Shown here one piece after another: positions 12,763-41,200 of a DNA stretch of 64,000 nucleotides. Each line of letters begins with the position of its first letter. Position 1 is the stretch's first letter. The DNA is taken from the NCBI GenBank assembly GCA_026387235.1, contig JAPLMD010000069.1:26920-90919 (forward strand). The letters run 5' to 3'. Both the position numbers and the translations under genes were made by a program. The notes beneath the pieces are model-generated. The model saw nothing but the letters and a program-made list of their open reading frames with translations. It did not search any database and was not told the DNA's origin. Origin of the DNA: Candidatus Omnitrophota bacterium. GTDB taxonomy: Bacteria; Omnitrophota; Gorgyraeia; Gorgyraeales; Gorgyraeaceae.

Positions 12763-12843
12763 AAGAAAAGACGCGTGGGGTTACAGACAGTGCTGGTGAC
12801 GTCCTATAAAGGGACACCCTATAGCTAAAAGGAGATTTTTGAC

Positions 12844-14430: not shown

Positions 14431-14442
14431 AAAGGATAGTTT

Positions 14443-15678: not shown

Positions 15679-15684
15679 TGTAGG

Positions 15685-15705
15685 GGGTCGATTAATAATC
15701 GACCC
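15685..15705. promoter_or_regulatory. Perfect 21-nt palindrome GGGTCGATTA-A-TAATCGACCC between the IPMS-like gene and purA
   Basis: 10+1+10 perfect inverted repeat, 7 nt after the upstream stop codon and ~25 nt before the purA RBS. No T-tract follows. Operator or hairpin. Confidence 0.4.
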
Positions 15706-15719
15706 ATTACAGTTGGTAG

Positions 15720-16961
<1,242 letters not shown>

Positions 16962-16976
16962 AAAGGAGAAGTAAAA

Positions 16977-19064
16977 ATGTTATTTTTAGCACCGGTGGGT
17001 TCAATATTGGCGCTGGGTTTTGCGTTTTATCTCGCAGTGTCAATACTCAAAAAGGACGAAGGAAATGAAAAAATGAAAGAGATTGCAGCCGCTGTCAGGA
17101 TAGGCGCTAAGGCGTATCTGAAGAGGCAATATATGGCGGTCTCTTTATTTTTTATAGTAGTGTTTTTTATTCTTTTAGCGTTATCGTTATTTAAATACCT
17201 GCCTATATTCGTGCCTTTTGCATTTTTAACAGGAGGATTTTTTTCAGGGCTTTCCGGTTTTATAGGCATGACCATAGCTACGCAGTCTTCAAACAGGACC
17301 GCGGCAGCAGCAATGAAGAGTTTGAATTCAGGGCTCAGGGTCGCGTTTTCAAGCGGGGCTGTCATGGGCCTTACGGTTGTAGGGCTCGGGCTTCTGGACC
17401 TTAGTATCTGGTATTATTTCTTAAACTGGTATTATTCAGCGCACCCTCTGGCTGTCGGCGTAGATAAGATAGGAGCTATTACTTCTACGATGCTTTGTTT
17501 TGGCATGGGCGCAAGCTCCCAGGCGCTTTTTGCCCGCGTCGGAGGAGGTATTTTTACAAAAGCAGCGGACGTAGGAGCTGATCTTGTTGGAAAAATAGAG
17601 GCAGGAATACCTGAAGATGACCCAAGAAATCCCGCTGTTATCGCAGATAATGTAGGAGATAACGTGGGCGACGTAGCAGGTATGGGCGCGGATCTTTATG
17701 AATCTTATGTAGGCTCTATTGTTGCGACTTCTGCGCTGGGAGTTGCGGCTGGATTAGGAATAGCAGGCGTTACTGTCCCAATGGTTATGGCAGCGGTAGG
17801 TGTTTTGGCATCAATTATAGGCACATTTTTTGTAAGGAGCAAAGAGGATGCAAGCCAGCCGGTGCTTTTAGCTGCTTTAAGAAAAGGCGTATTTGTAAGT
17901 TCTTTTATAGTTGCTATAGCGTCGTATTTTCTTGTTAAATATACCCTTGGTGCTCAGCATATGGGGGTTTACTGGTCAGTTATATCAGGCCTTGTAGCAG
18001 GTGTTTTGATTGGGCTTTCAACAGAATATTACACATCGAGCACTTTTAAGCCTACTAAAACAATTACAGATGCAAGTATTACCGGTCCTGCGACAGTTAT
18101 TATAAGCGGTATTGCAGTTGGCATGATGTCAACTGCAATACCTGTTTTGGTAGTCTGCGTTGCTATTATGGCAAGTTATTTCCTTTCAGGCGGAGCTACA
18201 AATTTTAATTCAGGATTGTATGGAATAGCGATTTCAGCAGTAGGCATGCTTTCTACCCTCGGGATTACTCTTGCAACTGATGCATATGGCCCTGTTGCTG
18301 ATAATGCAGGAGGAAACGCGGAGATGTCTCATCTGCCTCCTGAAGTTAGAAAAAGGACAGATGCGCTTGATGCGCTGGGAAACACAACTGCTGCTACCGG
18401 TAAGGGTTTTGCCATTGGTTCAGCTGCATTGACAGCTTTGGCTTTGATTGCGGCTTACAGGGACCAGGTATATTTATTCGGAAAGACGATGGACCTCAAC
18501 CTCATGAATCCCAGCGTTTTAATAGGCTTATTTATCGGAGGTATGCTCCCATTTTTATTCTGCTCAATGACGATGGCTGCGGTTGGGCGGGCGGCAACGA
18601 AGATTGTTGTAGAAGTGAGAAGGCAGTTCAAAGAAATCGCAGGACTCATGGAAGGCAAGACAAAGCCTGACTATGCGCGTTGCGTGAACATCGCTACGGT
18701 TGCTGCGCAAAAAGAAATGGTAATTCCGTCGCTTTTAGCTATAACATCTCCTATTGCAGTAGGGCTTCTGGTAGGGATTAATGCGGTCGGAGGACTTCTT
18801 ATGGGAGCTACTGTTACAGGGTTCGTGCTGGCGGTAATGATGGCGAATTCAGGCGGGGCGTGGGATAATGCAAAAAAATATATCGAAGAAGGCCATCATG
18901 GCGGAAAAGGTTCCCCTGCTCATAAAGCATGCGTTGTAGGCGATACAGTGGGAGACCCGTTTAAAGATACGTCAGGCCCGTCTCTTAATATTCTGATTAA
19001 ACTGATGTCAATGGTCTCGATTGTATTCGCGTCGTTTATCATAAAGAATACGCTGTTTAAGTGA
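16977..19064 (+). CDS. hppA: Membrane-bound proton/sodium-translocating pyrophosphatase
   Basis: [19 protein letters not shown] and DNVGDNVGD motifs. About 16 TM helices. 695 aa. Confidence 0.95.
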
Positions 19065-19165
19065 GGACATTATTTACGAAGTCCGACCTCGTCCCGAGGG
19101 GCAAGATTTCTGGGGACTCGGCCCCGAGGGAAGGATTTCATGCGATTGCGTTCCTAAGTTTTTCG

Positions 19166-19194
19166 TTGACTTTGACGGATTTATGTATTATGAT
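19166..19194 (+). promoter_or_regulatory. Sigma70-like promoter TTGACT-17-TATGAT upstream of the OmpA-like gene
   Basis: TTGACT at 19166-19171, 17-nt spacer, TATGAT at 19189-19194. About 85 nt upstream of the ATG at 19278. Confidence 0.45.
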
Positions 19195-19277
19195 TAACGA
19201 AAAGTCCCTCGCTGCCCGATGGTAAAAACCATGGCGGCTCGGGATAAAATTTTGTTTCACAAAATTTTGGGGGATAT

Positions 19278-20007
19278 TATGGTAGCGAATAAGAGATTGT
19301 TTACGGTTTTGGTTTTAACATTAGTTTCTATTGCAGTATCCGGATGTTCGGTTACGTTCCAGATGAGGCATAGGAGCGATGTGGAGAAGATAGGTTCGCT
19401 CGGAAACGAAATAGAAGCGCTGAATGCCAAATTAAGCCAATTGCAGGAACAGAAGGAGACAGAGCTGTCTGAGCTGGAAAAGGCAAAACTGCTTCTGGAA
19501 GAAAGGTTGAAACAGGAAATAGACGATAAGAGCGTGCGGCTTGAAATGGCGCAGAAAGGCCTTGCGATTATATTCCTGACAGAAGTTCTTTTTGATTCAG
19601 GCAAGACAGACATAAAGCCGGAGGCATTTCCTTCTCTCGATAAAATAGCAGGCGTTTTAAAAGATAATGTGGAAGACAGAAATATAGGCATAGAAGGCCA
19701 TGCTGACAATGAGCCTATAAAACATTCCAAGTGGAAATCAAACTGGGAGCTTTCTACCTCAAGAGCTACCAGCGTTTTGCATTATCTTGTGGACACGAAA
19801 GGCATAAATCCTAAAAGGGTGGCTGCGATAGGCTACGGCGAATACAGGCCTGTGGCTTCCAATGATACGGCTAGCGGCAGGAGGCAGAATAGAAGGGTTG
19901 AGATAGTCATACTTCCGAAGAATATGGAGAAGATCCAGGCAGATATGGATAAGATTACGCAGAGAAAACAGCAGATAGAAAGACAGCTTAAGAAATATAA
20001 AAAATAG
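19278..20007 (+). CDS. OmpA-family peptidoglycan-associated lipoprotein with coiled-coil linker
   Basis: Lipobox LVSIAVSGC. Coiled coil. C-terminal OmpA_C domain (…GHADNEPI…LSTSRATSV…). Start moved to the ATG at 19278. Confidence 0.8.
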
Positions 20008-20024
20008 AAGGGAGCGAATTAAAA

Positions 20025-20399
20025 ATGGATAAGATAAAGTCCAATTTTATGATTGTTGTTGCAGTGCTGATTGTTCTGTGTATCGTTCTTGCAGGTTATG
20101 CTGCAAGTTTAAATAGCCAGCTCAGCGCTGAAAAAACTAAAGTCATACAGCTTAACGATCAGATAGCCGGGCTTAATGCCAAGGCAAATGGCTTACAAAC
20201 ACAGTTAACCAGCTTGACTGCGCAGGCCGGCGACCAGACAACGCTTGTCAACAGCTTGCAGGGTTCTCTGAACAGTTTGCGAAGTTCGCTAGATACAGCT
20301 AACGCGGAATCAGAGAAGTTAAAAACAGCGTACGCAGACCTTGAATCAAAATTGAAAACGCAAGTCCTCGCTGATACTACGCAATCAGTAGCCAAATAA
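20025..20399 (+). CDS. Membrane-anchored coiled-coil protein (hypothetical)
   Basis: N-terminal TM followed by Q/L/S-rich heptad repeats. No enzyme motifs. Confidence 0.5.
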   Translation: MDKIKSNFMIVVAVLIVLCIVLAGYAASLNSQLSAEKTKVIQLNDQIAGLNAKANGLQTQLTSLTAQAGDQTTLVNSLQGSLNSLRSSLDTANAESEKLKTAYADLESKLKTQVLADTTQSVAK

Positions 20400-20499
20400 G
20401 CTGTTTCTGCAGAGTAATCAGCTGCCCTGGCTTGTCCCTTGACTTTGCTCGGGACTTTGCTGGCCGCGAATGTGCAGAATTTTATGGAACTATAAAAGG

Positions 20500-20545
20500 A
20501 CGCGAATCGTATTTGGCAAAAATGCGAATTCGCGTTTTTCTTTTC
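20500..20545 (+). terminator. Terminator-like hairpin plus T-tract downstream of the coiled-coil gene
   Basis: 8-bp stem ACGCGAAT (20500-20507) / ATTCGCGT (20528-20535) followed by TTTTTCTTTTC. Confidence 0.4.
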
Positions 20546-20629
20546 AAATTTGCCCGCCTAAGGCGGCAAATTTGACCCCGAGCCGCTCTATATTTCTAAA
20601 TAATATGCGGCGAGGGGTAACCGAAATCA

Positions 20630-21325
20630 ATGATACCAAAACATATAGCGATAATAATGGACGGGAATGGAAGATGGGCTGAAGCCAGGGGGCTTCCAAA
20701 GGTTATGGGCCACAAGCAAGGCGTGGAGTCTGTAAGAAGAATTGTAAAAGCGTGTCTTAACGCAGAGGTTAAATATCTAACGCTATATGCGTTTTCAACA
20801 GAAAATTGGGCCAGGCCTGACCATGAAGTAAAGGCGTTGTTTCAATTGCTTGAAAATTTTATAGATACAGAATTCAAGCTTTTTCACGATAAAGGCATAA
20901 GATTTTGCGTAATAGGAGAAAGGCATAAGATACAGAAGGATGTCCTTAAGAAAATAGAAAATTTGGAAAAGGATACGCTGCGCTATAATAATCTGACGGT
21001 CAATATAGCCTTAAGCTATGGCGCCAGGCAGGAGATATTGAATGCTGCAAAAAAGCTGGCGGAAGAGGTAAAAGACGGGAAATTAAAATCGCAAGAGATA
21101 GACGAAAATATATTTTCAGAAAGGCTTTATACTGCCGGACAGCCGGATCCTGATCTATTAATACGGACAAGCGGAGAGATGCGGGTATCAAATTTTCTCT
21201 TATGGCAGATTTCTTATGCTGAATTTTATGTGACTGAAACGCTCTGGCCTGATTTTGACGAGAATGAATTAAATAAAGCCATAGAAGAATATAATAAAAG
21301 GGACAGGAGATTCGGAGGCAGGTAA
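20630..21325 (+). CDS. uppS: Undecaprenyl diphosphate synthase (cis-prenyltransferase)
   Basis: HIAIIMDGNGRWA and the C-terminal RFGG motif. Confidence 0.95.
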   Translation: MIPKHIAIIMDGNGRWAEARGLPKVMGHKQGVESVRRIVKACLNAEVKYLTLYAFSTENWARPDHEVKALFQLLENFIDTEFKLFHDKGIRFCVIGERHKIQKDVLKKIENLEKDTLRYNNLTVNIALSYGARQEILNAAKKLAEEVKDGKLKSQEIDENIFSERLYTAGQPDPDLLIRTSGEMRVSNFLLWQISYAEFYVTETLWPDFDENELNKAIEEYNKRDRRFGGR

Positions 21326-21329
21326 AGTT

Positions 21330-22136
21330 ATGTTTAAACGCGCAGTTACCTCTATAATCTTAATATTGGTCGTTATCCTCAGCATATTTGTATTGCCTGT
21401 GTGGACATTCGGGATAGTCGCGTCTTTATTTATAGGTTTAGGCCTTTATGAATTTTTCAGATTGAGCGGCGCAAAAAAAATATTTCCATTAAGTTTTGCG
21501 TACGTCGGGATTTTTTCAGGCATATTATTACCGTATATTACTTATCTTTACAGGCCTACCGGCGGCATATGGGAGATGCTGTTTTTTATACTCATATTGA
21601 TTACGCTTTTTATAATACATTTTACAAGAAAAGAAAGCCAGAATGCCGTAAATCTGATCGCGGTAACTTTATTCGCTATTTTTTATATAGGATGGTTTTT
21701 CACTTTTCTGGTGAAGATAAGATTTTTAGAAGACGGCCATAAACTAGTAGCATACCTTCTTCTTGTTACAAAATCCGGAGATATGGGCGCGTATCTTATC
21801 GGGTCTAATTTTGGAAAGCACAAACTCATACCAAGGATAAGCCCTAATAAATCAGTGGAAGGGGCCATAGGCGGGTTTATATTCAGCATAGCATGCGCTA
21901 TTATCCTAGGCAGATACTATATTTCGTGGATGAGCTTTGGTTTTATACTTGCAAGCGGAGTTTTAATAGGAGTTTTCGCGCAGCTTGGAGACTTGGCAGA
22001 AAGCCTCATTAAGAGGGATTATGAGGTAAAAGATTCAAGTGTTTTTCTCCCTGGGCTTGGCGGCATGCTGGATGTGATTGACAGCATACTTTTTGCCGCG
22101 CCTATCTTTTATATTTGCCTGACTATTTTTAGGTAA
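21330..22136 (+). CDS. cdsA: Phosphatidate cytidylyltransferase
   Basis: GSNFGKHKLIPRISPNKSVEGAIGG, C-terminal GLGGMLDVIDS. Polytopic membrane protein. Confidence 0.9.
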   Translation: MFKRAVTSIILILVVILSIFVLPVWTFGIVASLFIGLGLYEFFRLSGAKKIFPLSFAYVGIFSGILLPYITYLYRPTGGIWEMLFFILILITLFIIHFTRKESQNAVNLIAVTLFAIFYIGWFFTFLVKIRFLEDGHKLVAYLLLVTKSGDMGAYLIGSNFGKHKLIPRISPNKSVEGAIGGFIFSIACAIILGRYYISWMSFGFILASGVLIGVFAQLGDLAESLIKRDYEVKDSSVFLPGLGGMLDVIDSILFAAPIFYICLTIFR

Positions 22137-27295: not shown

Positions 27296-30200
27296 ATGTC
27301 TGTGAAGCCATTATCTAGAGCAATCTCTATAACCGTGCTCATTACATTTCTTTTCACAAATATCCCATATGCTTCATCTGCCCCCAATTCTTTATTTAAG
27401 AACAAGAAAATAGACTATCAAAAGCTTTCCGATCAGAATCAAGATATTGTCCAGAAAAAGAAAGATATCCTATCTGGCGAAGATTCAAAACAAACCCAAT
27501 CACAGCAAAAACAAGCCCAGAAGATTCTGTCCAGCCATCTATCTGATATATCGCAGATTCATATTCCATCTGAGATAGGAAGGATAGTAGAGGTGCACCA
27601 GGGCACTGGGGCACCAGAGCATCAGGATAAGCTTATAGTGCACATACAAGACCTGCATACAAATCCTGAGGCAGAATATAACCTGGCAAAGATATTAGAG
27701 GTTCTATTAAATGACTATAAGATGGGTCTTGTATGTTCGGAGGGCGCTGATGGAGTTGTTGATACATCTAGTGTATCCACTTTTCCTGATTCCCAGGTAA
27801 GAGAAAAGATCTCCAAGATCTTTGTGAACGCAGGAGAACTCACAGGCGAGGAATACCTATCTATCACCAAATATCCTGATCTTCCCATCTGGGGCATTGA
27901 GAGTAAAGACATCTATTTCAGAAATATCATTGACTTCAATAAGATAATGAAATTCAACCCTGGGTCCCAAATCTTTATCTCCCAGGCTAAAAAAGCCCTG
28001 GAAGAGCTGAAAGCCAGAATCTATACAAAAGAACTGATTGAGCTGGACCAGAAAGAGGCTGATTACAAAGCCCAGAAGATAGAATCTCCTGAATATGTGA
28101 AATATCTTCTCGACTCGGCTGCTTCACAGCCTCGCTCGAAGAATATTCTCTCCAACTACAAAAATATCGGCCTATTGACTGAAACAATAGATGCGGAGAA
28201 AAAGATAGACCAGCTCAAGATAATGAACGAATCCCAAAAACTACTTTTAAACCTCCAGTCTTCCCTTAATGCCAAATCCCTCAACTCTGACATGGATTCT
28301 TTAATGGCAAAATCAAGCCTTTTCAAAGACCAGAAGATTTCACCATTCTCATTCTACAGCTACCTAAAAGACCTTGCAAATAAACACCTGAAGGACGAGT
28401 TTGGCGCAAAATACCCTAATCTGAATGGCTTTGTAGATTACCTCACTAAACTTAATTCTCTTGATTCCACAAAGCTCTTTATTGAATTAGAAGACCTGAA
28501 TTTTGAGATAAAACAAGCCCTTTCCAGAACAGATGAGCAAAAAACCCTTATCAAGGCCCTCAGAAACATAAGCTTCCTTGAAGGCTTTTTTAACCTCAAG
28601 GTCTCCAATGAAGAATTAGACTATTACCTTAATAATAAGGACTTCCATAAAGTAGCATTCTTTGAATCCTTCTTGAAACCAGCTATCAAAAAATACAATA
28701 TCAGCACCTTTATAGACTATAACCCCGATCTTATAGATTCCCATTTAACAGAGCTTGAGGATTTCTACAAGGTTGTAAAAGACCGCGATATCGCAATGGT
28801 AAATAACTCTATCTCTGAGATAGAGAAGCGCAACTCTAAAGTCAGCGCTCTTATTGCAGGAGGGTTTCATACAAAAGGCATCACTAAGCTCCTAAAAGAA
28901 AAAGGCTATTCCTATATAGTCATCTCCCCGTATTCAAAGACAGGTATAAATGAAGAGAACTATCACTATTTATTATCAGGCCAGCGTAAACCCTTAATGG
29001 AATTGGCAGAAAAGCTTAATGCTGCTGCTCTTCGCGTTATTCTTGGATTTGTAAAAGATCCGACCTTTGAAACAGAGCTTAAAAAAACTTTAGCTGCTGC
29101 TGGCATAATAGATAACCAGTTATATTCCGGTGCTAAACCAAGGATGTTATCTTTATTTGCGCTTGGGGCTGCTAAAACTCTATATCTGCGCGATAAAGCA
29201 AACTTTGATTTATCTGCGCTTCCAGCCTATTTTACATCTTCATTTTATACTGAATTAAATAAGCTTGGCTTAGATGTAGAGATAAGAGAGAGCAAATCAG
29301 GCATCCATGTGAAATGCGGGGATAATTACTTTGGCATAAATAAGGAAGATGGGGGGATAATAAAGTCTAATGCCAGCATATTTACCAGTGTATCTGATAA
29401 GAACAGAGTAATGCTGGCAAAAATAAGCGAAGAAGAGACGCTAAAAATTCCAGGGCCTCGTATTTCTGAAGGAATAACTCAGGCAGTTGCAGAAAAATGG
29501 AAAGCTAGAGCAGATATGGTTCCGGATTCGCAAATCAAAGTGATGAGAATAAAAGATTTGGAGATAGAAACTGTATTAATAACAGCTGATTCTGGAGATA
29601 TGCCTGAGGGGATACTGGCTTGGCGTTTGCGCGATAGTAAAAATAGGCTAGTGATAATTACGGAAAGGGAAGTAAAACTTGGAGACAGCTTTTCAGAAGA
29701 ACTTCTGTTTCACGAGCAATTTGAAGAGAATCTAAAACAAGAGCTTAATTATATTACTGACCGTGATCCAGAAAGGCTTAGACATACTAGGCATGCTATT
29801 GCCAGCGCAGTGGAATCTATACTATTTAGTGAGGGCGGGACCAGGCTTACGCCTTTTCATGAATATGCAATAGGCCATAGGATGAGCCTGTTGCACCTTA
29901 AAAGATTGGTCGATGAATATCAAGAACTAGGATTTTATTACAATATGATAGCAGATTTTTTTACTAGGAAAGGAATAGAATATCAAGATAAGGGCATAAC
30001 CATAGAAGCTTTACAGGCCTATGAAAGAAAATTTATAGCAAGAATAAAAGAAGAAATAAGGCACAGGACTACAGAGTCAAGAGCTCGGGCCGGCGCAAGG
30101 AGAAAGGGCAAAGCCGCTGAGGTGCCTAAGATGTATTTAGTGGGGAAAGTAGTTGTCCCTCAAGATGATGCCAGGACCCAGCAGGTGATTGAGCAGGCAA

Positions 30201-33200
30201 GGGGTCAGGAAAGGCTGGTAAGAATAGATGTATCTAAACAAGAGAGAATCACTCCGCAAGGCAGGTTTGCAGATATTTTGCGAGACGCAATCTCGTATTA
30301 TGAAAGACGGGGCGCATCTGATGAAGTAGCTGATTTGCAACAGACTGAATTTTACCTAGTTAGGCCGCAAGAGGATGATCCTAATCGCACTCTTCCAGGA
30401 TTTATTTGGTACGATTCAGATGGACATTACCTTATTGCCAAAGCAATGGAACCTAGACAAGCTTATTTTGGTTATGAGGCTATAGATATCTTAAGAGAAA
30501 AAAATCCAAGGATAGATTTTATTGCCAACATGCTTCTCCAGGTAGCACGATATGCTAAAGATCCTTATGGTAAGTGGGACCCATCTATACTTAACCATAT
30601 TTTGGCAGAGTCAGGAAACTATTTATTGGAAGATGCTCGTTTAATTAAAGAAGTGAGATTTATAATTAACCGCCTTTTTAAAGAAGAAACCTCGCCTGAA
30701 GAGAATGACCGGCTTCAGGGGCTCCTTATAGATATAAAACAACGCAAACCAGTTTTGTTCTATGTAGGGTTAGCTAATTTAGGAAGAACATACCTTCAGG
30801 GGATTTCCCCTAATAGATATCCCTGCGTCACTGCTGCAAATTTGTGTCTTGCCAGGAATTATGCTTTTATGGACCAGCATTTACAAAAGGATGCTTATGT
30901 CTCAGAAATAGACAGGACTATCACGGTTTTTAGAGATGTTTTTAATCCTACCTTAACTAGAGCGATTCCCTGGATGCTTCAGGTGTTAAAGGAGCAGCAG
31001 AATCCAGCTAATCCCAATTTAGTTAAGGGAGAAATACTTATAAAGAAAGGCGATAACTTTTTAGATCTTACTTGCGGGACAGGCATTTTTGGTTTGTTTG
31101 CAGCTTTAAACGGTGCAGAGAGTGTTTTAAGCAGCGATATTAATCCAAGTGCTGTGGCTTGCGCGAACTTTAATGCAAAAAAATTAGGAGTAGCTAAGAA
31201 AATGCAGGCAATACAAAGCGACCTTTTTAATGGTATTCCTAAAGATAGAAAATTTAACATTATCAGTTTTACCCCGCCATTCTTAGATGAGCCGCAATCT
31301 CCAGGCGTGTGGTTAGAAAAAGCTGTATATGACCCTGGATTCAGCCTTTTAACCCGTTTTTTAAATAGGGTTGGTAATTATCTAACTGATGATGGAAAGA
31401 TATTGTTTATAGGCACAGATAAGAGTCAGGGCCCAGAAGGGAAAAACAGCACAGGCCTCATGTTAGATTTAGCAAGACGGAAAGGATTTATCAGTACTAT
31501 TATACGTTCTCAAGAGTTTCATGGAGAAACCTACTCAGTTTATGAACTGACCAGAAGATCTGCTTTAGTGTCCGATAGCGAGATAGATAATCTTGTGGCA
31601 ACATCCCTAAGCTCTGACAAGGAATCAGCTAATTTTGCCATTAGAGAGTTAATTGAACAGGCTCGTTCTGCCTTTGATAGCAATCCTGAATTTTATCAAA
31701 GGCTATTCTTGCATCTCGTCCAGATTTATATTGAAGAATCCTATAACGGTTATGTATCGGAAAGGGTGATAGCTAAACGTAATGCAGGGGAGAGACCAGA
31801 CTTTTATGAAGAACAAAAGGCAGCAACCTATAATGCATCGGCAGCGCGAACAATAAACTGGTTTATTAAAGACTATTGTAGAGATGTTTTGAAATTAGAT
31901 CCTGAAGGCCAAATTGTTGAAGACTATTTTAGTTGCCTTCATATGTTGCCTATTATGAATAGAGATATGAAGAGAAGATTTAGCGAGCGTGATGGCATAG
32001 AGATAGATTCTACTATGATTGTTAATGGAAACCCAGAAGAAGTGCAGATGACCAAGGACTTTTATCGCGCGAGGTTGGGGCGTATATATGATTCTTTGAA
32101 AGTGATTGGCATAAGGGACGATCTATGGCTTGGCAATATAGTAGGTATGATGCCTTTATTTGAGGACTATTTGGCCCAGCCATCAAGAGACCAGGAAGCC
32201 AAGGGTAATAAAAAGGTTATATTGCATGTCTTGGCAGTTAATGGCGGCGCAGGAGCCAGAAATATTCTTCTTACAGCATCTTCTGATGGAAAAGGTGAAA
32301 TCATTCTTGACAATGGCCGCACAATGATGGAACAGGGCATTGAACAGGTAAAAGGCATGGTTCAGGGGTTAGTAGAAAGAAACATATATGGCGAATTTTT
32401 TATTGTTATTCCCTGCGATAACATGATACTCCCAGCCATGTATACAGCTGATGCTTACAGATCAGATAGAGGGTTTTATCTCTATGCAAGGAAGACTGAG
32501 GTTTTAAGGGCATCATTGAATGAACTTAAACATTGGGGGCCGCCGTTTGGCCAGATGTTTGCAAAAAGGGAAACGGGTATCGTCAAAGGTTTTGAAGAAA
32601 AACCAAACATATGGAAATTACTAAACAGAGTCATGATCAATGCTATTGAAGAAAGCAATGAAGAAACTTGCGGAAAAAGCATTTCGGAATTTTTATACAA
32701 CTTAGATACCAGAAGGAACAGGTATTTAGATGACTTGAAACAAAAATCCGGGGATTACGCCTTATACCTTATCGCCCTTCCTATGATTGTTCAGGAGGAG
32801 GTATGGAATTATGTCTATGAAAACGGCGAGGTGGAACCTGAAATCAGGAAGATTATCCCTACTTTTGATGAGTGGAAAAGGTTATATAGCGAAGCTAATA
32901 AACATAAGTCTCGAGTAGAAGGATTGATAAACAAAGTTTTAGATGAAGGAGGCACTGTTTCTTTTACAAATACTTTCTATTTTCTTTTATCCAGGCCTGT
33001 AGCAGAAAAGATTTATACTCTATTTTCACAGCCTACTGAAAGAGAGGACAGCGGTTCTTTCTGGGCAAGAAAGCTTCCCAAAGGCCAGACTCCAAAAATG
33101 GTAGCCGCACTTGACTGGGCAGGCTTAATCCTTACACCCATGACTGTAACCCAGGAAACATGGATGGAAGACTATGAAAAAAGAGGCGCTATGTATTTGG

Positions 33201-36166
33201 CAGAGCAGCAGGTGACTGATTTTATAAGTCAGGCTAGCTCCTTAAAAGAAGCCTATTGTCAAAAATTTAGTATAGCTTCCGAAGCTTATGAAGGCCAAGT
33301 AAATGCTTATCAAGAAAAGGCTGCTAAGGAAGGCATAGTTGAGACAGCTTTTCCTGTTCAGGATACTTATCAGAAAACTTTGAAAGCCTTTTTAGAGAAG
33401 GCACTTAAAAAAGATTTAATCAATGCTTTTGCCGCAGATATTAGATCAGCAATGATACAGGATAGTACTGTGCGAGCCAATGTTCTGGAAAGCGCTGAGA
33501 AAGTCACAACATATACTCACTATGACTGGAATAGAATCTGGGAAATGGCTCTGGACATTGACCTGGCAGCCGGCGGTTTAACATGTGTTAACTTTGGCCC
33601 GATCTGGTCTGATGTTGGTACAATTAAAGAAGCCAAGAGGCTGGCAGATTACGAGGTTTCAAAGGATAATCTTTTAGAGAGGGCTTTATATAGAGGTCTG
33701 TTTGAGCTGCCTATTACCCATGATAAAATATACAATGTTGATTCTAATAAGGGTAAGATTGTATATTCTAGCCCAAACGAATTCTTGCGTTATCGCAGTG
33801 TTATTGATGTTCCAGAAGGCGTAACTTTAATAATAGGAAATAGAGTAAGGATTGCTAATAGTTTTATTCAAATAATAGCCAAAAAAGGGGAAACAGTAAT
33901 AATACCTGATGATACTGCAATAGTAGCTAGTTATTTGCGCTGTTCAATAGGAAAGGAAGGCAAGCCAGGGTCATTTGTGTATAGACACGAGCAGAGAAGA
34001 GGTACTTTAGAATTTTCAGGAGATTTCATTACAACGATCCGGACCATTGAAGGGCCAGTGAGAGGAACCCATCCCATAGATGCAACTACTATTGCATGGA
34101 ACGACGTTCCAGTGGCAGGAACTTATACTCCCAGGATGTTGACTAGGCCATTTCCGGGTATGCCTGGACCCTTGCGAGACAAGCCTAAAGTTACTTCTGT
34201 TGTTGTTAGGGAAAAAACATATAGTTTTTATAGAAGTCGTCTCGATCGCATTATAACTACGATTTGGGAGAGAGCACAGTCACAAGAGGTCAGATTTATC
34301 CCTGAAAAGGCCATTGGAAAAATTATAGACATGGTTCAGAATGATAGAGCAAAAAGTGAAGGCAGAGGCTATATTTCAAGTTTCCTTTTTATAGGAGGCA
34401 ATGTCGGAGGTTTAGAGCCTCAAGTTTATACTCAGACATTAGAGAGATTAAGTAAGCATTATTTATATTATACTACTCCAGAAAGAAGGATTGGAGAAGA
34501 AGGGGTTTTCGGAAGGCGAGGCATGTCAGGTTTACAACATTCGTTAAGATCAATGCAACTGAATGATAAATATACTACTGAATTTCTGAATAGAGCCAAA
34601 GACCTGATTAAAGAAAGAAACATGAGAGGGCTTAAAGCATGGATAGAAGAAGCTAAACAGATAGATCCAGAAGAAGCAGGGATTAAGACTTTACGTTGTG
34701 CATTGGACTATTTAAGTAAAGAAGGGAGCCAGGTTGTACTTTACAGGATAGTTAGCAGGGCAGAAATAATAAAAGAGTATATTAGAGGCGAACATGGCGA
34801 AGAATTGGATATAGCTGACGCAGAACGAAAAGCCCGTGATTTATTAAGTGGGAAAGATCCTTATAAAGTTGATGAGCAGGATTTCTTAAGATTAATAGTA
34901 AGAGGGGAGACAGATCCAAATGACGCACATTCAGGCAGCCTGTCACATGACTTGCTTAGACACTATGAAGAAGGAGGTATTTTAAAAGGAGCTCTTGTAG
35001 AGAACGTTGCTAAATATAATATACCCAAAAAGGCCTTAATTAGTATTATGTGCGTCTTTCGCTGCCCTAGCAGGTCGGAGCTATTCTCTGATTTAGCTCA
35101 GCTGCCTCAAGAAGATATAGGCCTTTTAGAAAGTAAACTTGAGGATGCGATGTTTACGCATGACGAGATGTTATCAAGAAAGGTGAAAGAACTCCTTCAT
35201 AAGCATGGTAAGCCAATTACTGTAACCATAGATGGCTTAGCCATGACAGGCAAGAGCACGATGAGTAAAGATATAAGCAATGTCTTAGGATTTACACGTA
35301 TACCTGGAGGAGAGATAAGCAGGCTGATAACAGCTGGCCTGCTTGGAACAGGTATAAACCGTAATACTATAGAATCTACAGAGCCTGATACGATAGTTGC
35401 TGCAGTGCAGCAAACCTTGGAGGACGTGAAATATAAATTAATAGGCGGCGCTGTAACATTGTGCTATAAAGACACAGATTTGCTTAATAATCAAGATCTT
35501 TTAAGTCAACTCCGCAGCCAAGATATCAATGACAATATATCTTCACTTGTTATGAACAGTAACATTGTCAGAAATCTGCTTATAATGCATATCATGGAAT
35601 TGATAAAACAAGTCCATGATCTTGGTTTCAGCGTGGTGATAGATGGAAGATTAGCTGGAACTGAAATAGAACGGCAAGCAGATGTAAAGATTTGTTTGGA
35701 CACAAGCTATGAAGCCATGGCCAGAGCAGATGCCCGTAGAATTATTGACCAAAAAGGTAGTATGACTGCTTACATAGAGAGAACCGGCAATACTATGGCA
35801 GAGTATAGGCAAATTATAAGAAGTGGAGGGTTGCCAGGTGTGGAAAGAGCGATAATGCAGACTTATTATCAGCCAGCAGAAGAAAGAGATGCGAGTGATG
35901 TTTTAGATGTGGCTGAGTATCTATCCAGCAGAGAACAAGATGATGAGATTACTGTTATTTCATCAAGGGGCGTAGAAGATAGATTATCTATTAAGGATGT
36001 AAGAGAAACGATATTTGCAGAGATTATTAAAAAAATTAGCAATGCAGAAGATGCTGTAACTGTACTGAATTTAAGAGAGGGAACCCAGCCAGGAGTACCT
36101 TCAGATGCTGGTGTGTATCTCGAAACAGCTGTTCAAGGACTTAGAACCACAGGTCAAGGCCTATAA
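27296..36166 (+). CDS. Giant secreted multidomain protein (2956 aa). Signal peptide, paralogous N-domain, class-I SAM amino-methyltransferase domain, possible NTP-transferase-like stretch, shared C-module, cytidylate-kinase-like P-loop domain.
   Basis: Sec-type signal peptide MSVKPLSRAISITVLITFLFTNIPYASSA|P. N-domain (~27383-29020) ~80-85% identical to the gene 3 N-domain. MTase motif I DLTCGTG (31063-31083) and motif IV FTPPF (31268-31282). LAVNGGAGARN…FIVIPCDNM (32215-32430) weakly nucleotidyltransferase-like. Cmk-like ITVTIDGLAMTGKST (P-loop) and VVIDGRLAGTE…KICLDTSYEAMARADARR (35213-35745). Confidence 0.85.
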   Translation: MSVKPLSRAISITVLITFLFTNIPYASSAPNSLFKNKKIDYQKLSDQNQDIVQKKKDILSGEDSKQTQSQQKQAQKILSSHLSDISQIHIPSEIGRIVEVHQGTGAPEHQDKLIVHIQDLHTNPEAEYNLAKILEVLLNDYKMGLVCSEGADGVVDTSSVSTFPDSQVREKISKIFVNAGELTGEEYLSITKYPDLPIWGIESKDIYFRNIIDFNKIMKFNPGSQIFISQAKKALEELKARIYTKELIELDQKEADYKAQKIESPEYVKYLLDSAASQPRSKNILSNYKNIGLLTETIDAEKKIDQLKIMNESQKLLLNLQSSLNAKSLNSDMDSLMAKSSLFKDQKISPFSFYSYLKDLANKHLKDEFGAKYPNLNGFVDYLTKLNSLDSTKLFIELEDLNFEIKQALSRTDEQKTLIKALRNISFLEGFFNLKVSNEELDYYLNNKDFHKVAFFESFLKPAIKKYNISTFIDYNPDLIDSHLTELEDFYKVVKDRDIAMVNNSISEIEKRNSKVSALIAGGFHTKGITKLLKEKGYSYIVISPYSKTGINEENYHYLLSGQRKPLMELAEKLNAAALRVILGFVKDPTFETELKKTLAAAGIIDNQLYSGAKPRMLSLFALGAAKTLYLRDKANFDLSALPAYFTSSFYTELNKLGLDVEIRESKSGIHVKCGDNYFGINKEDGGIIKSNASIFTSVSDKNRVMLAKISEEETLKIPGPRISEGITQAVAEKWKARADMVPDSQIKVMRIKDLEIETVLITADSGDMPEGILAWRLRDSKNRLVIITEREVKLGDSFSEELLFHEQFEENLKQELNYITDRDPERLRHTRHAIASAVESILFSEGGTRLTPFHEYAIGHRMSLLHLKRLVDEYQELGFYYNMIADFFTRKGIEYQDKGITIEALQAYERKFIARIKEEIRHRTTESRARAGARRKGKAAEVPKMYLVGKVVVPQDDARTQQVIEQARGQERLVRIDVSKQERITPQGRFADILRDAISYYERRGASDEVADLQQTEFYLVRPQEDDPNRTLPGFIWYDSDGHYLIAKAMEPRQAYFGYEAIDILREKNPRIDFIANMLLQVARYAKDPYGKWDPSILNHILAESGNYLLEDARLIKEVRFIINRLFKEETSPEENDRLQGLLIDIKQRKPVLFYVGLANLGRTYLQGISPNRYPCVTAANLCLARNYAFMDQHLQKDAYVSEIDRTITVFRDVFNPTLTRAIPWMLQVLKEQQNPANPNLVKGEILIKKGDNFLDLTCGTGIFGLFAALNGAESVLSSDINPSAVACANFNAKKLGVAKKMQAIQSDLFNGIPKDRKFNIISFTPPFLDEPQSPGVWLEKAVYDPGFSLLTRFLNRVGNYLTDDGKILFIGTDKSQGPEGKNSTGLMLDLARRKGFISTIIRSQEFHGETYSVYELTRRSALVSDSEIDNLVATSLSSDKESANFAIRELIEQARSAFDSNPEFYQRLFLHLVQIYIEESYNGYVSERVIAKRNAGERPDFYEEQKAATYNASAARTINWFIKDYCRDVLKLDPEGQIVEDYFSCLHMLPIMNRDMKRRFSERDGIEIDSTMIVNGNPEEVQMTKDFYRARLGRIYDSLKVIGIRDDLWLGNIVGMMPLFEDYLAQPSRDQEAKGNKKVILHVLAVNGGAGARNILLTASSDGKGEIILDNGRTMMEQGIEQVKGMVQGLVERNIYGEFFIVIPCDNMILPAMYTADAYRSDRGFYLYARKTEVLRASLNELKHWGPPFGQMFAKRETGIVKGFEEKPNIWKLLNRVMINAIEESNEETCGKSISEFLYNLDTRRNRYLDDLKQKSGDYALYLIALPMIVQEEVWNYVYENGEVEPEIRKIIPTFDEWKRLYSEANKHKSRVEGLINKVLDEGGTVSFTNTFYFLLSRPVAEKIYTLFSQPTEREDSGSFWARKLPKGQTPKMVAALDWAGLILTPMTVTQETWMEDYEKRGAMYLAEQQVTDFISQASSLKEAYCQKFSIASEAYEGQVNAYQEKAAKEGIVETAFPVQDTYQKTLKAFLEKALKKDLINAFAADIRSAMIQDSTVRANVLESAEKVTTYTHYDWNRIWEMALDIDLAAGGLTCVNFGPIWSDVGTIKEAKRLADYEVSKDNLLERALYRGLFELPITHDKIYNVDSNKGKIVYSSPNEFLRYRSVIDVPEGVTLIIGNRVRIANSFIQIIAKKGETVIIPDDTAIVASYLRCSIGKEGKPGSFVYRHEQRRGTLEFSGDFITTIRTIEGPVRGTHPIDATTIAWNDVPVAGTYTPRMLTRPFPGMPGPLRDKPKVTSVVVREKTYSFYRSRLDRIITTIWERAQSQEVRFIPEKAIGKIIDMVQNDRAKSEGRGYISSFLFIGGNVGGLEPQVYTQTLERLSKHYLYYTTPERRIGEEGVFGRRGMSGLQHSLRSMQLNDKYTTEFLNRAKDLIKERNMRGLKAWIEEAKQIDPEEAGIKTLRCALDYLSKEGSQVVLYRIVSRAEIIKEYIRGEHGEELDIADAERKARDLLSGKDPYKVDEQDFLRLIVRGETDPNDAHSGSLSHDLLRHYEEGGILKGALVENVAKYNIPKKALISIMCVFRCPSRSELFSDLAQLPQEDIGLLESKLEDAMFTHDEMLSRKVKELLHKHGKPITVTIDGLAMTGKSTMSKDISNVLGFTRIPGGEISRLITAGLLGTGINRNTIESTEPDTIVAAVQQTLEDVKYKLIGGAVTLCYKDTDLLNNQDLLSQLRSQDINDNISSLVMNSNIVRNLLIMHIMELIKQVHDLGFSVVIDGRLAGTEIERQADVKICLDTSYEAMARADARRIIDQKGSMTAYIERTGNTMAEYRQIIRSGGLPGVERAIMQTYYQPAEERDASDVLDVAEYLSSREQDDEITVISSRGVEDRLSIKDVRETIFAEIIKKISNAEDAVTVLNLREGTQPGVPSDAGVYLETAVQGLRTTGQGL

Positions 36167-36341: not shown

Positions 36342-36396
36342 GTACACAATAAAAATATAGAATTTTTGTTTGACAGAAAAGCGGAAGAGGGGAGCC

Positions 36397-38130
36397 ATGT
36401 TTTTTAAATCATTTAAGAAAATCACTCCAATTATTGCCCTGGGCATATTTATAGCTGTTAATACTATACATGCGGCGTCTGATTCCAAATCCATATTCAA
36501 AAATAAAAAAATTGACTACCAAAAACTGAGCACTGAAGAAGAAGAAGCCCTTCGAAGAAAAAAAGCTATGCGCAGCGAAGAGGCTGTCAATAAACCTAAA
36601 GTCCAGAAAAAGGAAACCCAGAAGATAGTTTTTTCGCGTCTTTCTGATATATCGTTCATCCACATCCCCCAGGAAACAGGGAAAATAGCGGAAATATACC
36701 AGAGCCCTAACCAGGATAATTCCAGGCTCGTAGTGCATATTCAGGACTTACATACTAATCCGGAAGCAACGCTTAACCTGGCCAGGATACTGGAAATATT
36801 GTTTAAAGACTATAATCTGGGGTTAGTGTGTTCAGAAGGGGCAGAGGGCCCGGTTGATACTTCCAGCGTTGCCAGTTTTCCTGACCCAGAAGTCAGGGAA
36901 AAAGTAGCCAAGCTTTTTGTTGATTCAGGAGAGCTCACAGGAGAGGAGTATTTATCCATAACAAAATATCCGGATCTACCCATATGGGGCATTGAAAATA
37001 AAGATATCTATTTTAAAAATATCGAGGAATTTAACAGCATAATGAAGTTTAATCATGATTCCCAGGCTTTTATCTCCCAGACTAAAAAGGCGTTAGAAGA
37101 ATTAAAACCAAAAATTTATTCGAAAGAGATGCTGGAGATAGACCAGAAAGAAGACGATTACGAACAGCAGACAATAGAAACAACCGATTACTTAAAGTAC
37201 CTGTCTTTATATCTTCGGAAACTGAACATCCCGGCAGACAGCTATAAAAATATAACGCTATTAAATGAGACTATAATACAGGAATCCAGGATTGACCAGC
37301 AAAAGGTCAAGCAGGAATCCCAGGACATGCTTTTGAATTTACAGTCAGCTATTGCCAAGAAGCCCAATAGCACGGATATGGATAGTTTAATGGCTAAGGC
37401 CACCCTGTTTAAGGACCAGAAAATATCGCCTTTTTCATTCTATAATTATCTAAAAGAGCTGGCAGGTAAAGAGTTAGGGGGCCAGTTGTCAAAATATCCA
37501 AATGTAATGGGCTTTGTGGATTATCTTGCAAAAGTCAATTCGCTTGATTCCGCAAAACTTTTTACGGAGATAGAGAATCTGACCTACGAAATAAAACAAA
37601 AGCTCGCTGTAAATAATGAACAGAAAGAGCTTGTCCTTGCCCTGCGCAATATAAAATTTCTTGAGACCTTTTTTAATCTTGAAATTTCCAACGAGGACCT
37701 GGAGTATTATTTAAATAACAGGGATTTTCACAAAGTAGCGTTCTTTAAGGATGTTTTAGCGGGTTTGAGGGCCAAGGCAGGGCTTTCGACCCAGGCAGAT
37801 TATATAGATTTTAATCCTGATTTAATAGATTCTCACCTAGGGGAGATAGAAGATTTCTATGAAACCGCAAAATCCAGGGATCTGGCTATGTTTAATAACG
37901 CTGTCTCAGAAATAGAAAAGCGCAACGTAAGAGTGGCTGCTCTGGTAACAGGCGGATTTCATACAAAAGGCCTGACCAGGCTTTTAAAGGATAAAGGCTA
38001 TTCCTATATAGTTATATCTCCGTATGCAAAAACCGGCATAGACGAAGAGAATTATCGTTTTCTGTTATCAGGTAAGCGCAAGCCAATAGAAGAAATAATA
38101 AAACAATTTGAGGAAACTAAGCAAAAATAA
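36397..38130 (+). CDS. Secreted stand-alone copy of the ~560-aa N-domain (paralog of genes 1 and 3 N-termini)
   Basis: Signal peptide MFFKSFKKITPIIALGIFIAVNTIHAAS|D followed by the SIFKNKKIDYQKLS motif. Colinear with the gene 1 and gene 3 N-domains throughout (VHIQDLHTNPEA…CSEGAEG…GGFHTKG…LLSGKRKP). The ORF-track start at 36370 is a TTG that forms part of a TTGACA box; the ATG at 36397 is preferred. Confidence 0.8.
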   Translation: MFFKSFKKITPIIALGIFIAVNTIHAASDSKSIFKNKKIDYQKLSTEEEEALRRKKAMRSEEAVNKPKVQKKETQKIVFSRLSDISFIHIPQETGKIAEIYQSPNQDNSRLVVHIQDLHTNPEATLNLARILEILFKDYNLGLVCSEGAEGPVDTSSVASFPDPEVREKVAKLFVDSGELTGEEYLSITKYPDLPIWGIENKDIYFKNIEEFNSIMKFNHDSQAFISQTKKALEELKPKIYSKEMLEIDQKEDDYEQQTIETTDYLKYLSLYLRKLNIPADSYKNITLLNETIIQESRIDQQKVKQESQDMLLNLQSAIAKKPNSTDMDSLMAKATLFKDQKISPFSFYNYLKELAGKELGGQLSKYPNVMGFVDYLAKVNSLDSAKLFTEIENLTYEIKQKLAVNNEQKELVLALRNIKFLETFFNLEISNEDLEYYLNNRDFHKVAFFKDVLAGLRAKAGLSTQADYIDFNPDLIDSHLGEIEDFYETAKSRDLAMFNNAVSEIEKRNVRVAALVTGGFHTKGLTRLLKDKGYSYIVISPYAKTGIDEENYRFLLSGKRKPIEEIIKQFEETKQK

Positions 38131-38240: not shown

Positions 38241-41200
38241 ATGACTTTTAATACTATGAAGAAGGTTGCTTCTATAGTTACATTTATTAGTTTTATAGCC
38301 ACTAATAGCATATATGCCGCGCCTGAGTCAAAGTCTGTATTCAAGAACAAGAAGGTGGACTATCAGAAGATTAATGACCAGAATAATGGCGTTATTCAGA
38401 GGAAAAAGGCCATTCTTAACGGAGAAGACGCAAACCAGGTTGAGTCCCAGCAAAAAGAGGCTCAGAAGATACTCTCATCCCATCTTTCTGATATATCACT
38501 TATCCATATTCCTGCAGAGTTGGGAAGAATTACCGAAGTCTACCAGAACCCAGATGCTGAAAACTCCAGGCTAATTGTCCATATCCAGGATCTTCATACG
38601 AACCCTGAGGCAGAGTATAACCTTGCCAAGATACTTGAGCTTTTATTGAATGATTATAAAATGGGCCTGGTGTGCTCAGAAGGTGCTGATGGCGCAGTGG
38701 ATACTTCAAGTATTTCAAGTTTCCCGGATTATGCAACAAGGGAAAAGGTCTCAAAGATATTTGTCAATGCAGGCGAGCTTACAGGAGAGGAATACCTCTC
38801 AATAACAAAATACCCTGCTCTACCTATCTGGGGAATTGAAAATAAGGAAATATATTTCAAAAATATAATTGATTTTAATAAGATAATGAAATTTAATCCC
38901 CAGTCACAGGTTTTTATATCACAGGCAAAAAAGGCGCTTGAAGAACTTAAAAACAAGCTTTATACAAAAGAGCTTTTGGAATTAGACCAGAAGGGATTAG
39001 ATTATAAGGCGCAGAAACTTGAGTCAGCAGATTATATAACATACCTTACAGGATATGTCCAAAAACTTAATATCCCAACGCTCAAATATGAGAATGTTTC
39101 GCTATTGAATGAAACTATTGATATGGAGAAAAGAATAGGCCAGCTGAAGATAATGAACGAATTGCAGAATCTATTACTGAATCTGCAGGCGGCGTTTTTA
39201 TCCAAATCCATGAAAGGAGAATCTGATTCTTTAAACGCCAACGCCCAGCTTTTCAAAGACCAGAAGATATCGCCGTTTTCATTTTATAGTTACCTGAAAG
39301 ACCTTGCGAATAAGCACCTTAAAGACGAATTTTCTGCAAAATATACAGCTATAAATAGCTTTGTAACCTACCTCACAAAAGTAAATTCATTAGATTCCAC
39401 AAAGCTATTCATAGAATTGGAAGACCTTAATTTTGAAATAAAAGAAGCGCTCTGTAGAACAGAGGAACAAAAAACGCTTGTGAAGGCGCTCCGCAATATA
39501 GATTTCCTTGAAGGGTTTTTTAATCTGAAGGTCTCAAATGAAGAATTAGATTATTATCTTGAAAATAAAGAATCCCATAAGGTGGCGTGGTTCAAATCTG
39601 CAATAACGGGCATAACAGGCAAAATAGGCCTAACGGGCCAAACGAACTACATAGATTATAATTCGGCTTTAATAGACCCGCATCTAACTGAACTTGAAGA
39701 ATTTTACAAGGTTGTAAAAGAGCGCGATGTGGCAATGGTGGATAATTCATTGTTTGAGATTGAGAAACGCAGATCAAAGGTAAGTGCATTAATAGCAGGC
39801 GGATTCCATACAAAAGGCATAACAAGGCTTTTAAAGGATAAGGGGTATTCTTATATAGTAGTATCTCCGTATTCAAAGACAGATATGGATGAGCAAAATT
39901 ACCATTTCTTATTGTCAGGAAAAAGAAAACCCCTTGTAGAATTATTGAAACAATTAGATTTAGGTGGAATTGTAAAAAGATACATCACTTCTACCGGCCT
40001 TCGAGTAAATATGGGTTGTGATACAGATATGGATGCGGCTTTTGGACGTCAAGTAATTCCTGAACTTGCAAAAATATGGGATTTTGAACCAGAGGATTTG
40101 CATCGATGGAATTTACCTCCAAGAGTGGTAGCTTGTTTAGTATTTCAAAGCGCAGCAGCAGGAAGAACTGACTTTAAAGGATGGCCGTCAATAGTTGGGT
40201 TAGAGCTAAATGATATAGGTGTGTTAAAGCTTACTTCTCGTGAAGGGTATATTTACTATGTTGAAGTTACCGCTGATAATAAAGTAAAAGAAGCAAAGCC
40301 AGATGCTTTTAATAATGGCACAGTAGTTGTAAATATACCATCAGCAGGCACAGGGCAAATAATCGCAAAGGAGCTACAAAAGGTAGATTTAAGTGCTGTA
40401 GAACCGGAAGCAGCCGTAGGTTCTCTTTTTAACCTTTTGGATTTACTTATACGCTTACGTGATGGTCAGGGAATCACAGAAATTTCAACTGGGAAATTAA
40501 AAACGGAGCGCACTGCAGTTGGTGTCAGAATGGTTGACAGAGAAATAAACGCAGGCCGTTTGCTCGGCATATTAGAGGACAAAGAAACATCAAGGGGAGT
40601 TGTTAAATTCACAGAGCCATTTAAAGATATTACCCGTGCAGAATTAGTAGAAATAAATACAGAAATAGCAAAAATCCTGCCTAAAGGTTTAGGCAGAGGG
40701 ACATTAGATCAGTTAGATCAAGTTAAACTAGAGCAAGTAAGAAAGATAGTAGAAACTTTTAAAAAAGTGGACGGATTACGAACACAACAGGGTAGAGAAG
40801 CGGAGTTTTTGGTTCAAAATGTGCAGAAGTTGTCAAGAGTTGATGGAGGTATAGTTGCAGGTATTGGATTACAGGATATTCATGGCCGGGTGTTTAAGCT
40901 AAATGGCCAGTTTTTTAACGATGATGGTAGCTATACCGAGGAGTTGCAGAAGTTTATGGATACTCTCTCTGATAATTCGGTCCAAGAGATGATACATGCA
41001 GGGATTATGTATTATGATATTCGCTCTAAATACTGGAAAGATAACCCTGCATTTACAGTGGCATTTGCATTTGCCTTTGCAAAGAAGTTGCAGGAAATAG
41101 AGGGCAGGCAAGATGGTATAGTGCTTCATATAGGCGTCGATGCATATCATAAGCATTTTGAAACAGCTCAGGTTTTTGCTGATGCAATATTGAGGACAGG

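Follow-up and report, generated by a model that had tools for sequence, protein, structure and literature searches.

A divergent TIKI-like domain, putatively hydrolytic, heads very long and probably exported proteins of Omnitrophota

Very long and largely unannotated proteins are a known trait of Omnitrophota, a phylum of uncultured, ultra-small bacteria, and the locus described here concerns what such proteins carry at their N-terminal ends. The window, by which we mean the whole 64,000-nucleotide stretch analyzed (positions 26,920 to 90,919 of Candidatus Omnitrophota bacterium contig JAPLMD010000069.1, assembly GCA_026387235.1), has a G+C content of ~40%, a uniformly positive GC skew, and long open reading frames (ORFs) that lie nearly all on the + strand. 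Three consecutive + strand ORFs, G1, G2, and G3 (Table 1), each open with a signal-peptide-like leader followed by a common domain of ~540 amino acids (aa), hereafter the N-domain, and their first ~575 residues align with 61 to 70% pairwise identity. An original prediction, made by a model from the sequence alone, had singled out the interval 27383-29020, corresponding to aa 30 to 575 of G1, where conservation of the domain stops near aa 566 (nucleotide 28993). We assign a probability of about 0.72 to the reading that the N-domain is an unannotated, very divergent exported hydrolase of the TIKI/TraB-PrgY-GumN/ChaN/erythromycin-esterase superfamily. By analogy with characterized relatives it is most likely a His/Glu hydrolase, either a peptidase or an esterase.

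The functional residues of this superfamily are a 2His/2Glu motif and a conserved basic residue, and in RRSP all five (E3900, H3902, E3930, R4001, and H4030) are essential by mutagenesis (PMC6254334). G2 presents a counterpart set consisting of D126-x-H128, E156, R503, and H531. The 28 residues separating H128 from E156 equal the spacing in RRSP and in Bcr135, where the corresponding His-Glu pair is H85/E113 (PMC6254334), and R503 stands 28 residues ahead of H531, compared with 29 in RRSP. All five positions are invariant in a 61-sequence alignment (A3). Across 194 full-length homologues, reaching down to ~26% identity, H128, E156, R503, G528, G529, and H531 are conserved in 100%, D126 in 99%, E209 in 98%, and F530 in 95%, so that the His and Glu conservation which the original prediction had proposed to check holds without exception for both histidines and for E156. 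Other invariant or near-invariant positions are Q125, N130, E132, N136, G157, G187, E193, G207, E209, Y214, Y385, F496, Y497, N510, S545, Y546, and Y562; being specific to the family, they suggest that one conserved substrate or mechanism is maintained family-wide.

Three motifs are common to G1, G2, and G3: xVHIQDLHTNPEA, CSEGA(D/E)G.VDTSS, and GGFHTKG(I/L)T(K/R)LLK(E/D)KGYSYIV(I/V)SPY. They are the ones reported at the outset for all three copies, with the correction that G2 reads TGGFH rather than AGGFH. The proposal of two Gly-rich His motifs fits the second of them (GGFH), whereas the first is Q-D-L-H and thus not Gly-rich.

An AlphaFold2 (AF2) model of G2, built on a 25-sequence alignment, has a mean predicted local distance difference test (pLDDT) value of 80, with blocks from aa ~120 to ~560 mostly at 81 to 96. 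In this model a beta-hairpin strand (104-110) precedes strand 120-126, directly after which lies Q125-D126-x-H128 (QDLH); helix 131-148 and strand 152-155 then lead to E156. Helices containing a GELTGEEY motif, strand 205-208 (WGI) with E209, and an all-helical region (211-486) make up the middle. The end is formed by helix 487-518, which bears F496, Y497, R503, and N510, followed by strand 522-528, G528-G529-F530-H531, helix 529-541, and strand 545-551. The putative catalytic residues occupy the ends of strands and the helix ahead of the second His motif, matching the description of RRSP (PMC6254334). As modeled, two halves lying far apart in the sequence, G2 aa ~100-210 and ~487-570, would together form the alpha/beta core.

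A TIKI fold is common to PMT, HopBA1, Bcr135, and ChaN (PMC6254334), and the list of structure matches to the N-domain includes (row and listed value in parentheses) the Bcr135-type “succinoglycan biosynthesis protein” 2qgm (row 1, 7.8), ChaN 2g5g (row 3, 7.6), HopBA1 5t09 (row 4, 7.6), EreC 6xcq (row 7, 7.4), the TraB family protein 8bqs_DQ (row 8, 7.3), the Bcr136-like protein 2rad (row 9, 7.2), and RRSP 5w6l (row 11, 6.9). Interleaved with these rows are helical bundles, which fit the helical region, and generic alpha/beta proteins of shorter aligned length. We also looked for an unrelated fold, such as that of a periplasmic binding protein: none won, and the periplasmic-binding-protein fold was not seen in the structure comparison.

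Sequence profiles point faintly in the same direction. When the 61 members were scanned singly against Pfam at E<=10, PF04187 (“Haem-binding uptake, Tiki superfamily, ChaN”) was matched below threshold in 8 of them, with a best E value of 0.045. In one such protein (P0035) the match, which covers the R...GGFH region, runs over aa 476-518 of the protein and over positions 163-204 of the 213 in the model, with 12.8 bits against a gathering cut-off of 27.7. DUF5694 and DUF5682 match the same R...GGFH segment in another member (P0058), far below their gathering thresholds. The initial impression of a TraB/GumN/TIKI/erythromycin-esterase relationship is supported by the catalytic set at its published spacing and by these sub-threshold matches to the homologous R...GxxH end of the ChaN model.

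Several results weigh against this assignment. Scans of the G1, G2, and G3 copies with Pfam (2025) and NCBIfam (2026) returned chance-level matches only and no model for the domain, and profile searches of PDB sequences with three alignments (A2, 25 sequences; A3; and A4, the spliced core) gave no TIKI match. Foldseek against the PDB found nothing significant, the best probability being 0.41, for EreC. Comparison of A2 by hhalign with Escherichia coli YbaP alone, and then with the YbaP family (>59% identical; effective number of sequences [Neff], 2.2), yielded probabilities of <1% and is uninformative; comparison of the spliced core with a diverse TraB/GumN alignment, composed of 15 sequences from plasmid records, gave an E value of 0.11 and a probability of <1%. 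PF01963 (TraB/PrgY/GumN) matched none of the 61 members even at E<=10, and the Erythro_esteras model is absent from the 25 families most often matched in that scan; we do not place the N-domain in PF01963, PF04187, or Erythro_esteras as these are curated. The first motif is a variant, with Gln in place of Gly (QDxH, not GxxH) and Asp where RRSP has Glu, and the equivalence of residues to solved active sites comes from spacing and secondary structure, not from superposition. As for export, signal-peptide cleavage was judged from the sequence by eye, and the domains of the cargo belong to cytoplasmic types. We nevertheless treat homology at the superfamily level as well supported by the structure and the active-site pattern, despite the sub-threshold sequence signals.

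The relationship to individual systems can be stated more closely. Motif order agrees with that of TraB/PrgY/GumN (PF01963; E. coli YbaP; 8bqs_DQ): a His motif, a Glu, (G/L)xE, R(D/N)xx(M/W), GxxH, and G..L...L...GY.V, for which YbaP and the diverse TraB/GumN alignment read G(S/T)IH, E, LE(T/G)..Q, RN..W, and GAxHLxG..GL...L...GY.V. In the non-significant hhalign alignment of the spliced core, RDxAM pairs with RNxxW and GGFH with GALH, while E209 falls about one column off the Glu of LE(G/T); E209 of WGIE is possibly the counterpart of the TraB/GumN “LE(T/G)..Q” motif. Unlike TraB/GumN, whose first motif is G(S/T)xH, the N-domain has QDxH and is without a C-terminal membrane anchor.

With the Ere family (EreC, 6xcq; Bacillus cereus Bcr135/Bcr136, 2qgm, 3b55, and 2rad) the N-domain shares the H...(28 aa)...E pair, seen as H85/E113 in Bcr135, and the Foldseek alignments to EreC, non-significant as they are, run over ~506 columns for a chain of 408 residues. 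This resemblance is structural only; the N-domain, in contrast to Ere enzymes, follows a signal-peptide-like leader and usually comes with cargo of >1,000 aa. ChaN (Cofac_haem_bdg, PF04187; Campylobacter jejuni ChaN, 2g5g) is represented by the only curated model with recurrent matches, all of them sub-threshold, and is titled a putative lipoprotein in its PDB entry, so that both proteins would be exported, the N-domain by its leader. ChaN is haem-binding, however, whereas the N-domain family keeps the full predicted catalytic set, and the match amounts to ~13 bits against the cut-off of 27.7.

A further comparison is with RRSP (DUF5, Vibrio MARTX, 5w6l) and the Pasteurella PMT C1-C2 region. 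The spacing of the 2His/2Glu and Arg residues in RRSP is nearly identical to that in the N-domain; RRSP also has an acidic residue two positions ahead of the first His, E in RRSP and D in the N-domain, and forms a single module within a secreted protein of very large size and many domains, as the N-domain would. RRSP differs in that it is an effector located internally, has a four-helix membrane-localisation domain, and is delivered into eukaryotic cells, while the N-domain is always an N-terminal head and its helical region is different and much larger. Animal TIKI, finally, is described as a protease acting on Wnt ligands, whose N-termini it trims, and its activity is metal-dependent.

In the helical region, G2 aa 211-486 are predicted by AF2 as ~13 helices of 4 to 34 residues over ~280 aa, with pLDDT mostly 80 to 96, and lie where aligned TraB/GumN relatives hold a shorter variable segment. 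From the second acidic motif to the Arg there are ~160 residues in YbaP (E67 to R228), ~70 in RRSP, and ~350 in G2 (E156 to R503). This comparison makes the segment look like an expanded variable region of the superfamily and not a foreign coiled coil; the coiled-coil-rich insertion proposed at the outset is predicted as a long, all-helical region between the motifs. In the model it is probably an expanded lid or substrate-binding subdomain. Recurrent sub-threshold Pfam matches fall within it, namely, PAH_ZNF598 in 27 of the 61 members (best E, 3.4e-6) and DUF7952 in 7 of them. A conserved helix-loop-helix, “LFKDxKISPxxFYxYL” (G2 aa ~330-365, ~37357-37464), has counterparts in G1 and G3, is the source of the recurrent PAH_ZNF598 matches, and resembles an EF-hand in shape but shows no evident calcium ligands. 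Marginal PDB sequence matches to S100 proteins occur around it and to myosin light chain nearby. We regard all four kinds of match (PAH_ZNF598, DUF7952, S100, and myosin light chain) as helix-loop-helix resemblance only.

How common is this domain? A HMMER profile scan of 1.84 billion cluster representatives yields 9,806 representatives at E<=1e-3, of which 6,610 reach E<=1e-30. All 150 proteins listed, which range from 404 to 7,727 aa, have the start of the domain among their first ~85 residues. Sixty homologues came from a word-indexed search, with identities down to 28%, mostly of ~560 to 590 aa and without a Pfam domain, and all named sources among them are Omnitrophota or Omnitrophica. 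GTDB species genomes, searched with one narrow peptide pattern, contain 518 confirmed loci, in places several per metagenome-assembled genome (MAG). Every informative title is again Omnitrophota or Omnitrophica, the remaining ones being the placeholders “uncultured Planctomycetia” and “uncultured bacterium.” As far as sampled, the family is Omnitrophota-specific.

For 80 of the 518 loci the surrounding sequence was fetched and the architecture counted. The domain stands at the start of a long ORF in 64 (~80%), is stand-alone in 10 (~13%), and is truncated in 6; 56 of the 64 fused ORFs extend at least ~1,000 aa further, reaching the end of the fetched flank. Among the 194 full-length members, 35% are shorter than 700 aa. 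In Omnitrophota the N-domain stands at the head of thousands of long multi-enzyme proteins that are still unexplained, with one copy per protein that is always N-terminal. A stand-alone member on a different contig (JGI Ga0247841_10000029, 10001-21722) is followed within 12 kb by at least eight small PilZ-domain genes and two M48 peptidase genes.

The leaders speak for export. An N-terminal hydrophobic segment is present in 158 of the 194 members, and 153 of the 194 have no other transmembrane-like segment. Read by eye in G1 to G3 and in sampled members, the N-termini combine a basic n-region with ~12 to 15 hydrophobic residues and with c-regions such as ...TNxxYA|AP, ...AFA|AP, and ...PLHA|EE, a pattern that fits a cleavable Sec signal peptide. 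Such a peptide together with the ~60-aa linker ahead of the core suggests that the N-domain probably acts outside the cytoplasm. We considered a reversed signal-anchor topology, in which the bulk of the protein would be cytoplasmic; it would account for the cytoplasmic-type cargo, but the leaders resemble cleavable signal peptides, and we set it aside as less likely, although an uncleaved signal anchor may still apply. G2, a stand-alone copy with a signal-peptide-like N-terminus, agrees with the earlier proposal that the domain also exists as a free secreted protein. Its start is listed as TTG at 36370, while a 100% identical NCBI protein of 577 aa, a hypothetical protein from a “Candidatus Omnitrophica bacterium” MAG, starts at ATG 36397. 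The latter is probably the true start and gives a more typical signal peptide (MFFKSFKK...).

Table 1. Coordinates in the window of the three N-domain genes and of the features of the domain
Feature	Coordinates	Strand	Description
G1	27296-36166	+	2956-aa ORF with N-domain head
G2	36370-38130	+	586 aa; stand-alone copy of leader and N-domain, no cargo
G3	38241-42854	+	1537 aa; leader and N-domain at aa 1-564 (38241..39932), cargo of ~970 aa
G1 leader	27296..27382	+	positively charged n-region, hydrophobic core, “TNIPYASSAP”; resembles a Sec signal peptide, presumably cleaved
G1 N-domain (aa 30-566)	27383..28993	+	low-complexity linker of ~60 aa, then TIKI/ChaN/Ere-like alpha/beta core interrupted by helical region
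G1 D119-L-H121, putative first catalytic motif (G2 D126/H128)	27650..27658	+	counterpart of the superfamily E-x-H/GxxH
G1 E149 (G2 E156)	27740..27742	+	Glu 28 residues past the initial His, where the following beta-strand ends
G1 E202 (G2 E209)	27899..27901	+	WGIE motif; 98% conserved among 194 members
G1 all-helical region, ~aa 204-480 (G2 211-486)	27905..28735	+	G1 coordinates mapped from G2 by alignment
G1 R497 (G2 R503)	28784..28786	+	basic residue on the helix preceding the second His motif
G1 G-G-F-H525 (G2 H531), second GxxH motif	28859..28870	+	followed by TKGITKLLKEKGYSYIV; from conservation and sub-threshold Pfam matches
G2 putative catalytic codons	D126 36745, H128 36751, E156 36835, R503 37876, H531 37960	+	
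G3 putative catalytic residues	within 38241..39932	+	D117, H119, E147, R495, H523

If the N-domain is an enzyme of this superfamily, Ere esterases and RRSP suggest how it would work: water activated by the His-Glu pair would attack the carbonyl of an ester or peptide bond; the Arg (R503) may help to bind the substrate, and the expanded helical lid may shape specificity. The domain would act alone, as in G2, or, more often, at the N-terminus of exported proteins of great length with variable C-terminal cargo. Its target might be its own polypeptide, the cell envelope, or a prey or host molecule. The likeness in fold, the conserved residues, the N-terminal placement, and the phyletic spread are observations, whereas export, catalysis, the bond attacked, and the target are inferred.

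The same fold could instead be non-catalytic, a ligand-binding or scaffold module that tethers or organizes cargo on the cell envelope as ChaN or PMT C2 might. Non-enzymes do exist in the superfamily, since PMT is without the 2His/2Glu motif (PMC6254334) and ChaN is a haem binder by the title of 2g5g; the sole recurrent Pfam superfamily signal is that of the ChaN model, and an obligatory N-terminal position ahead of interchangeable cargo would suit an anchoring or organizing role. We think this quite unlikely: the five catalytic positions are 99 to 100% conserved over the 194 members down to ~26% identity, which is unexpected for a pure scaffold, and PMT, the inactive example, has lost these very residues (PMC6254334). 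Nor do we find it probable that the N-domain is unrelated to TIKI altogether, i.e., a generic three-layer alpha/beta domain with a helical bundle, in which the His/Glu/Arg pattern would have arisen by convergence or would mark a different class of hydrolase. The uniformly non-significant Foldseek, hidden Markov model (HMM), and hhalign results speak for it, yet the five positions agree in their order, their spacing, and the secondary structure around them, and it is the homologous end of the ChaN and DUF5694 models that the weak Pfam matches cover.

A different alternative concerns the role of the head and is compatible with a TIKI fold: the domain could act in cis in maturation or sorting, cleaving or freeing its own giant polypeptide, as the MARTX cysteine protease domain does, or serving as a handle for secretion or surface attachment. 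A single copy per protein, always N-terminal and ahead of unrelated cargo arrays, speaks for such a role. In a passage of their preprint, West-Roberts et al. raise the possibility that N-terminal peptidase domains (C39 and S8) cleave Omnitrophota giant proteins (bioRxiv 10.1101/2023.11.21.568195), and the TIKI-fold peptidase RRSP is itself part of the MARTX polyprotein (PMC6254334). The domain is stand-alone, however, in ~13% of the loci counted (10/80) and in 35% of the full-length proteins collected; the copy found among PilZ and M48 peptidase genes has no giant gene nearby, and the cargo showed no conserved motif that could be a candidate cleavage site. The stand-alone copies indicate that cis-processing is not the whole story, and as a general account we hold it to be unlikely. 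A bolder version gives the head a phylum-wide role, that of processing or activating the multi-enzyme polyproteins which predatory or parasitic Omnitrophota would export. Arrays of sugar-phosphate and nucleotide enzymes would be cleaved, set free, or tethered by it, either outside the cell or within prey or host, following a MARTX-like logic with metabolic effectors in place of toxins. We offer this as a speculation with a small chance of being right. The hydrolase assignment given above remains our preferred reading.

The cargo behind the heads is diverse. By Pfam, G1 carries methyltransferase and cytidylate kinase domains and G3 a PGM-like domain; elsewhere in the family we observe UDP-glucose pyrophosphorylase together with PGM (P0062) and PGM (P0096), and in several further members the cargo is without a Pfam-detectable domain. 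The presumed mature end of G1 opens with the conserved motif S(L/I/V)FKNKK(I/V)DYQK. Within the window no Pfam match was obtained for G1 aa 576-1240 and 1336-2339, G3 aa 565-1100, aa 36-800 of the following gene, G4, or the whole ORF 48646-50622. Export signals on proteins with glycolytic-type domains, an odd combination, have already been reported for Omnitrophota giant proteins in the same preprint (bioRxiv 10.1101/2023.11.21.568195), and a 2026 preprint on long Omnitrophota proteins likewise notes the puzzle of cytoplasmic-type cargo behind an export signal.

Six consecutive + strand genes with domains of sugar-phosphate or nucleotide-enzyme type (methyltransferase and cytidylate kinase, PGM-like, PGI and FBPase, and HAD) occupy 27296-53254, and a signal-like leader opens five of the six. 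G4 (42851-48571; 1906 aa) contains the PGI and FBPase domains. Its start and the end of G3 (42854) overlap by 4 bases, which suggests that the two long genes are translationally coupled. G4 is without a TIKI-like domain and has only the leader in common with G1 to G3, a shared part (aa 1-47) made up of a signal-like helix and “YAAPxxxSLFKNK”; the family HMM matches G4 aa 13-47 (E, 2e-4), and BLAST pairs G3 aa 1-37 with the G4 leader. This likeness in a protein lacking the head suggests that a leader for export or sorting is shared among these genes independently of the head. In addition, a domain of ~275 aa with 45% identity is common to the C-terminal part of G1 (aa 2340-2612; 34313-35131) and to ORF 50558-53254 (aa 594-869; 52337-53164), a protein with an HAD domain in which this copy is C-terminal. 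The G1 copy has no Pfam match. A nucleoside-diphosphate-kinase-like reading of this domain was dropped, as it relied on motif resemblance without a Pfam match there.

A passage of the preprint on Omnitrophota giant proteins states that their N-terminal regions “generally lack identifiable domains” (bioRxiv 10.1101/2023.11.21.568195). In the text of the 2026 preprint on long Omnitrophota proteins the word “TraB” does not occur, and its passages on N-termini and signal peptides describe no such domain; literature searches combining Omnitrophota with TraB, GumN, ChaN, or Tiki gave nothing relevant among the top-ranked results. We rate the N-domain as a new, strongly diverged branch of a known superfamily, marked by a QDxH first motif, a helical region of ~280 aa, and a large phylum-restricted expansion. 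It would give a testable identity to one head domain of giant proteins, found in on the order of 10^4 protein clusters and mostly fused to long cargo in the genomic copies, and G2, with ~550 aa in its mature form, offers a tractable, small stand-alone version for expression, structure determination, and activity screening. The family would add a diverged branch to a superfamily with known roles in Wnt signaling, macrolide resistance, and toxin action.

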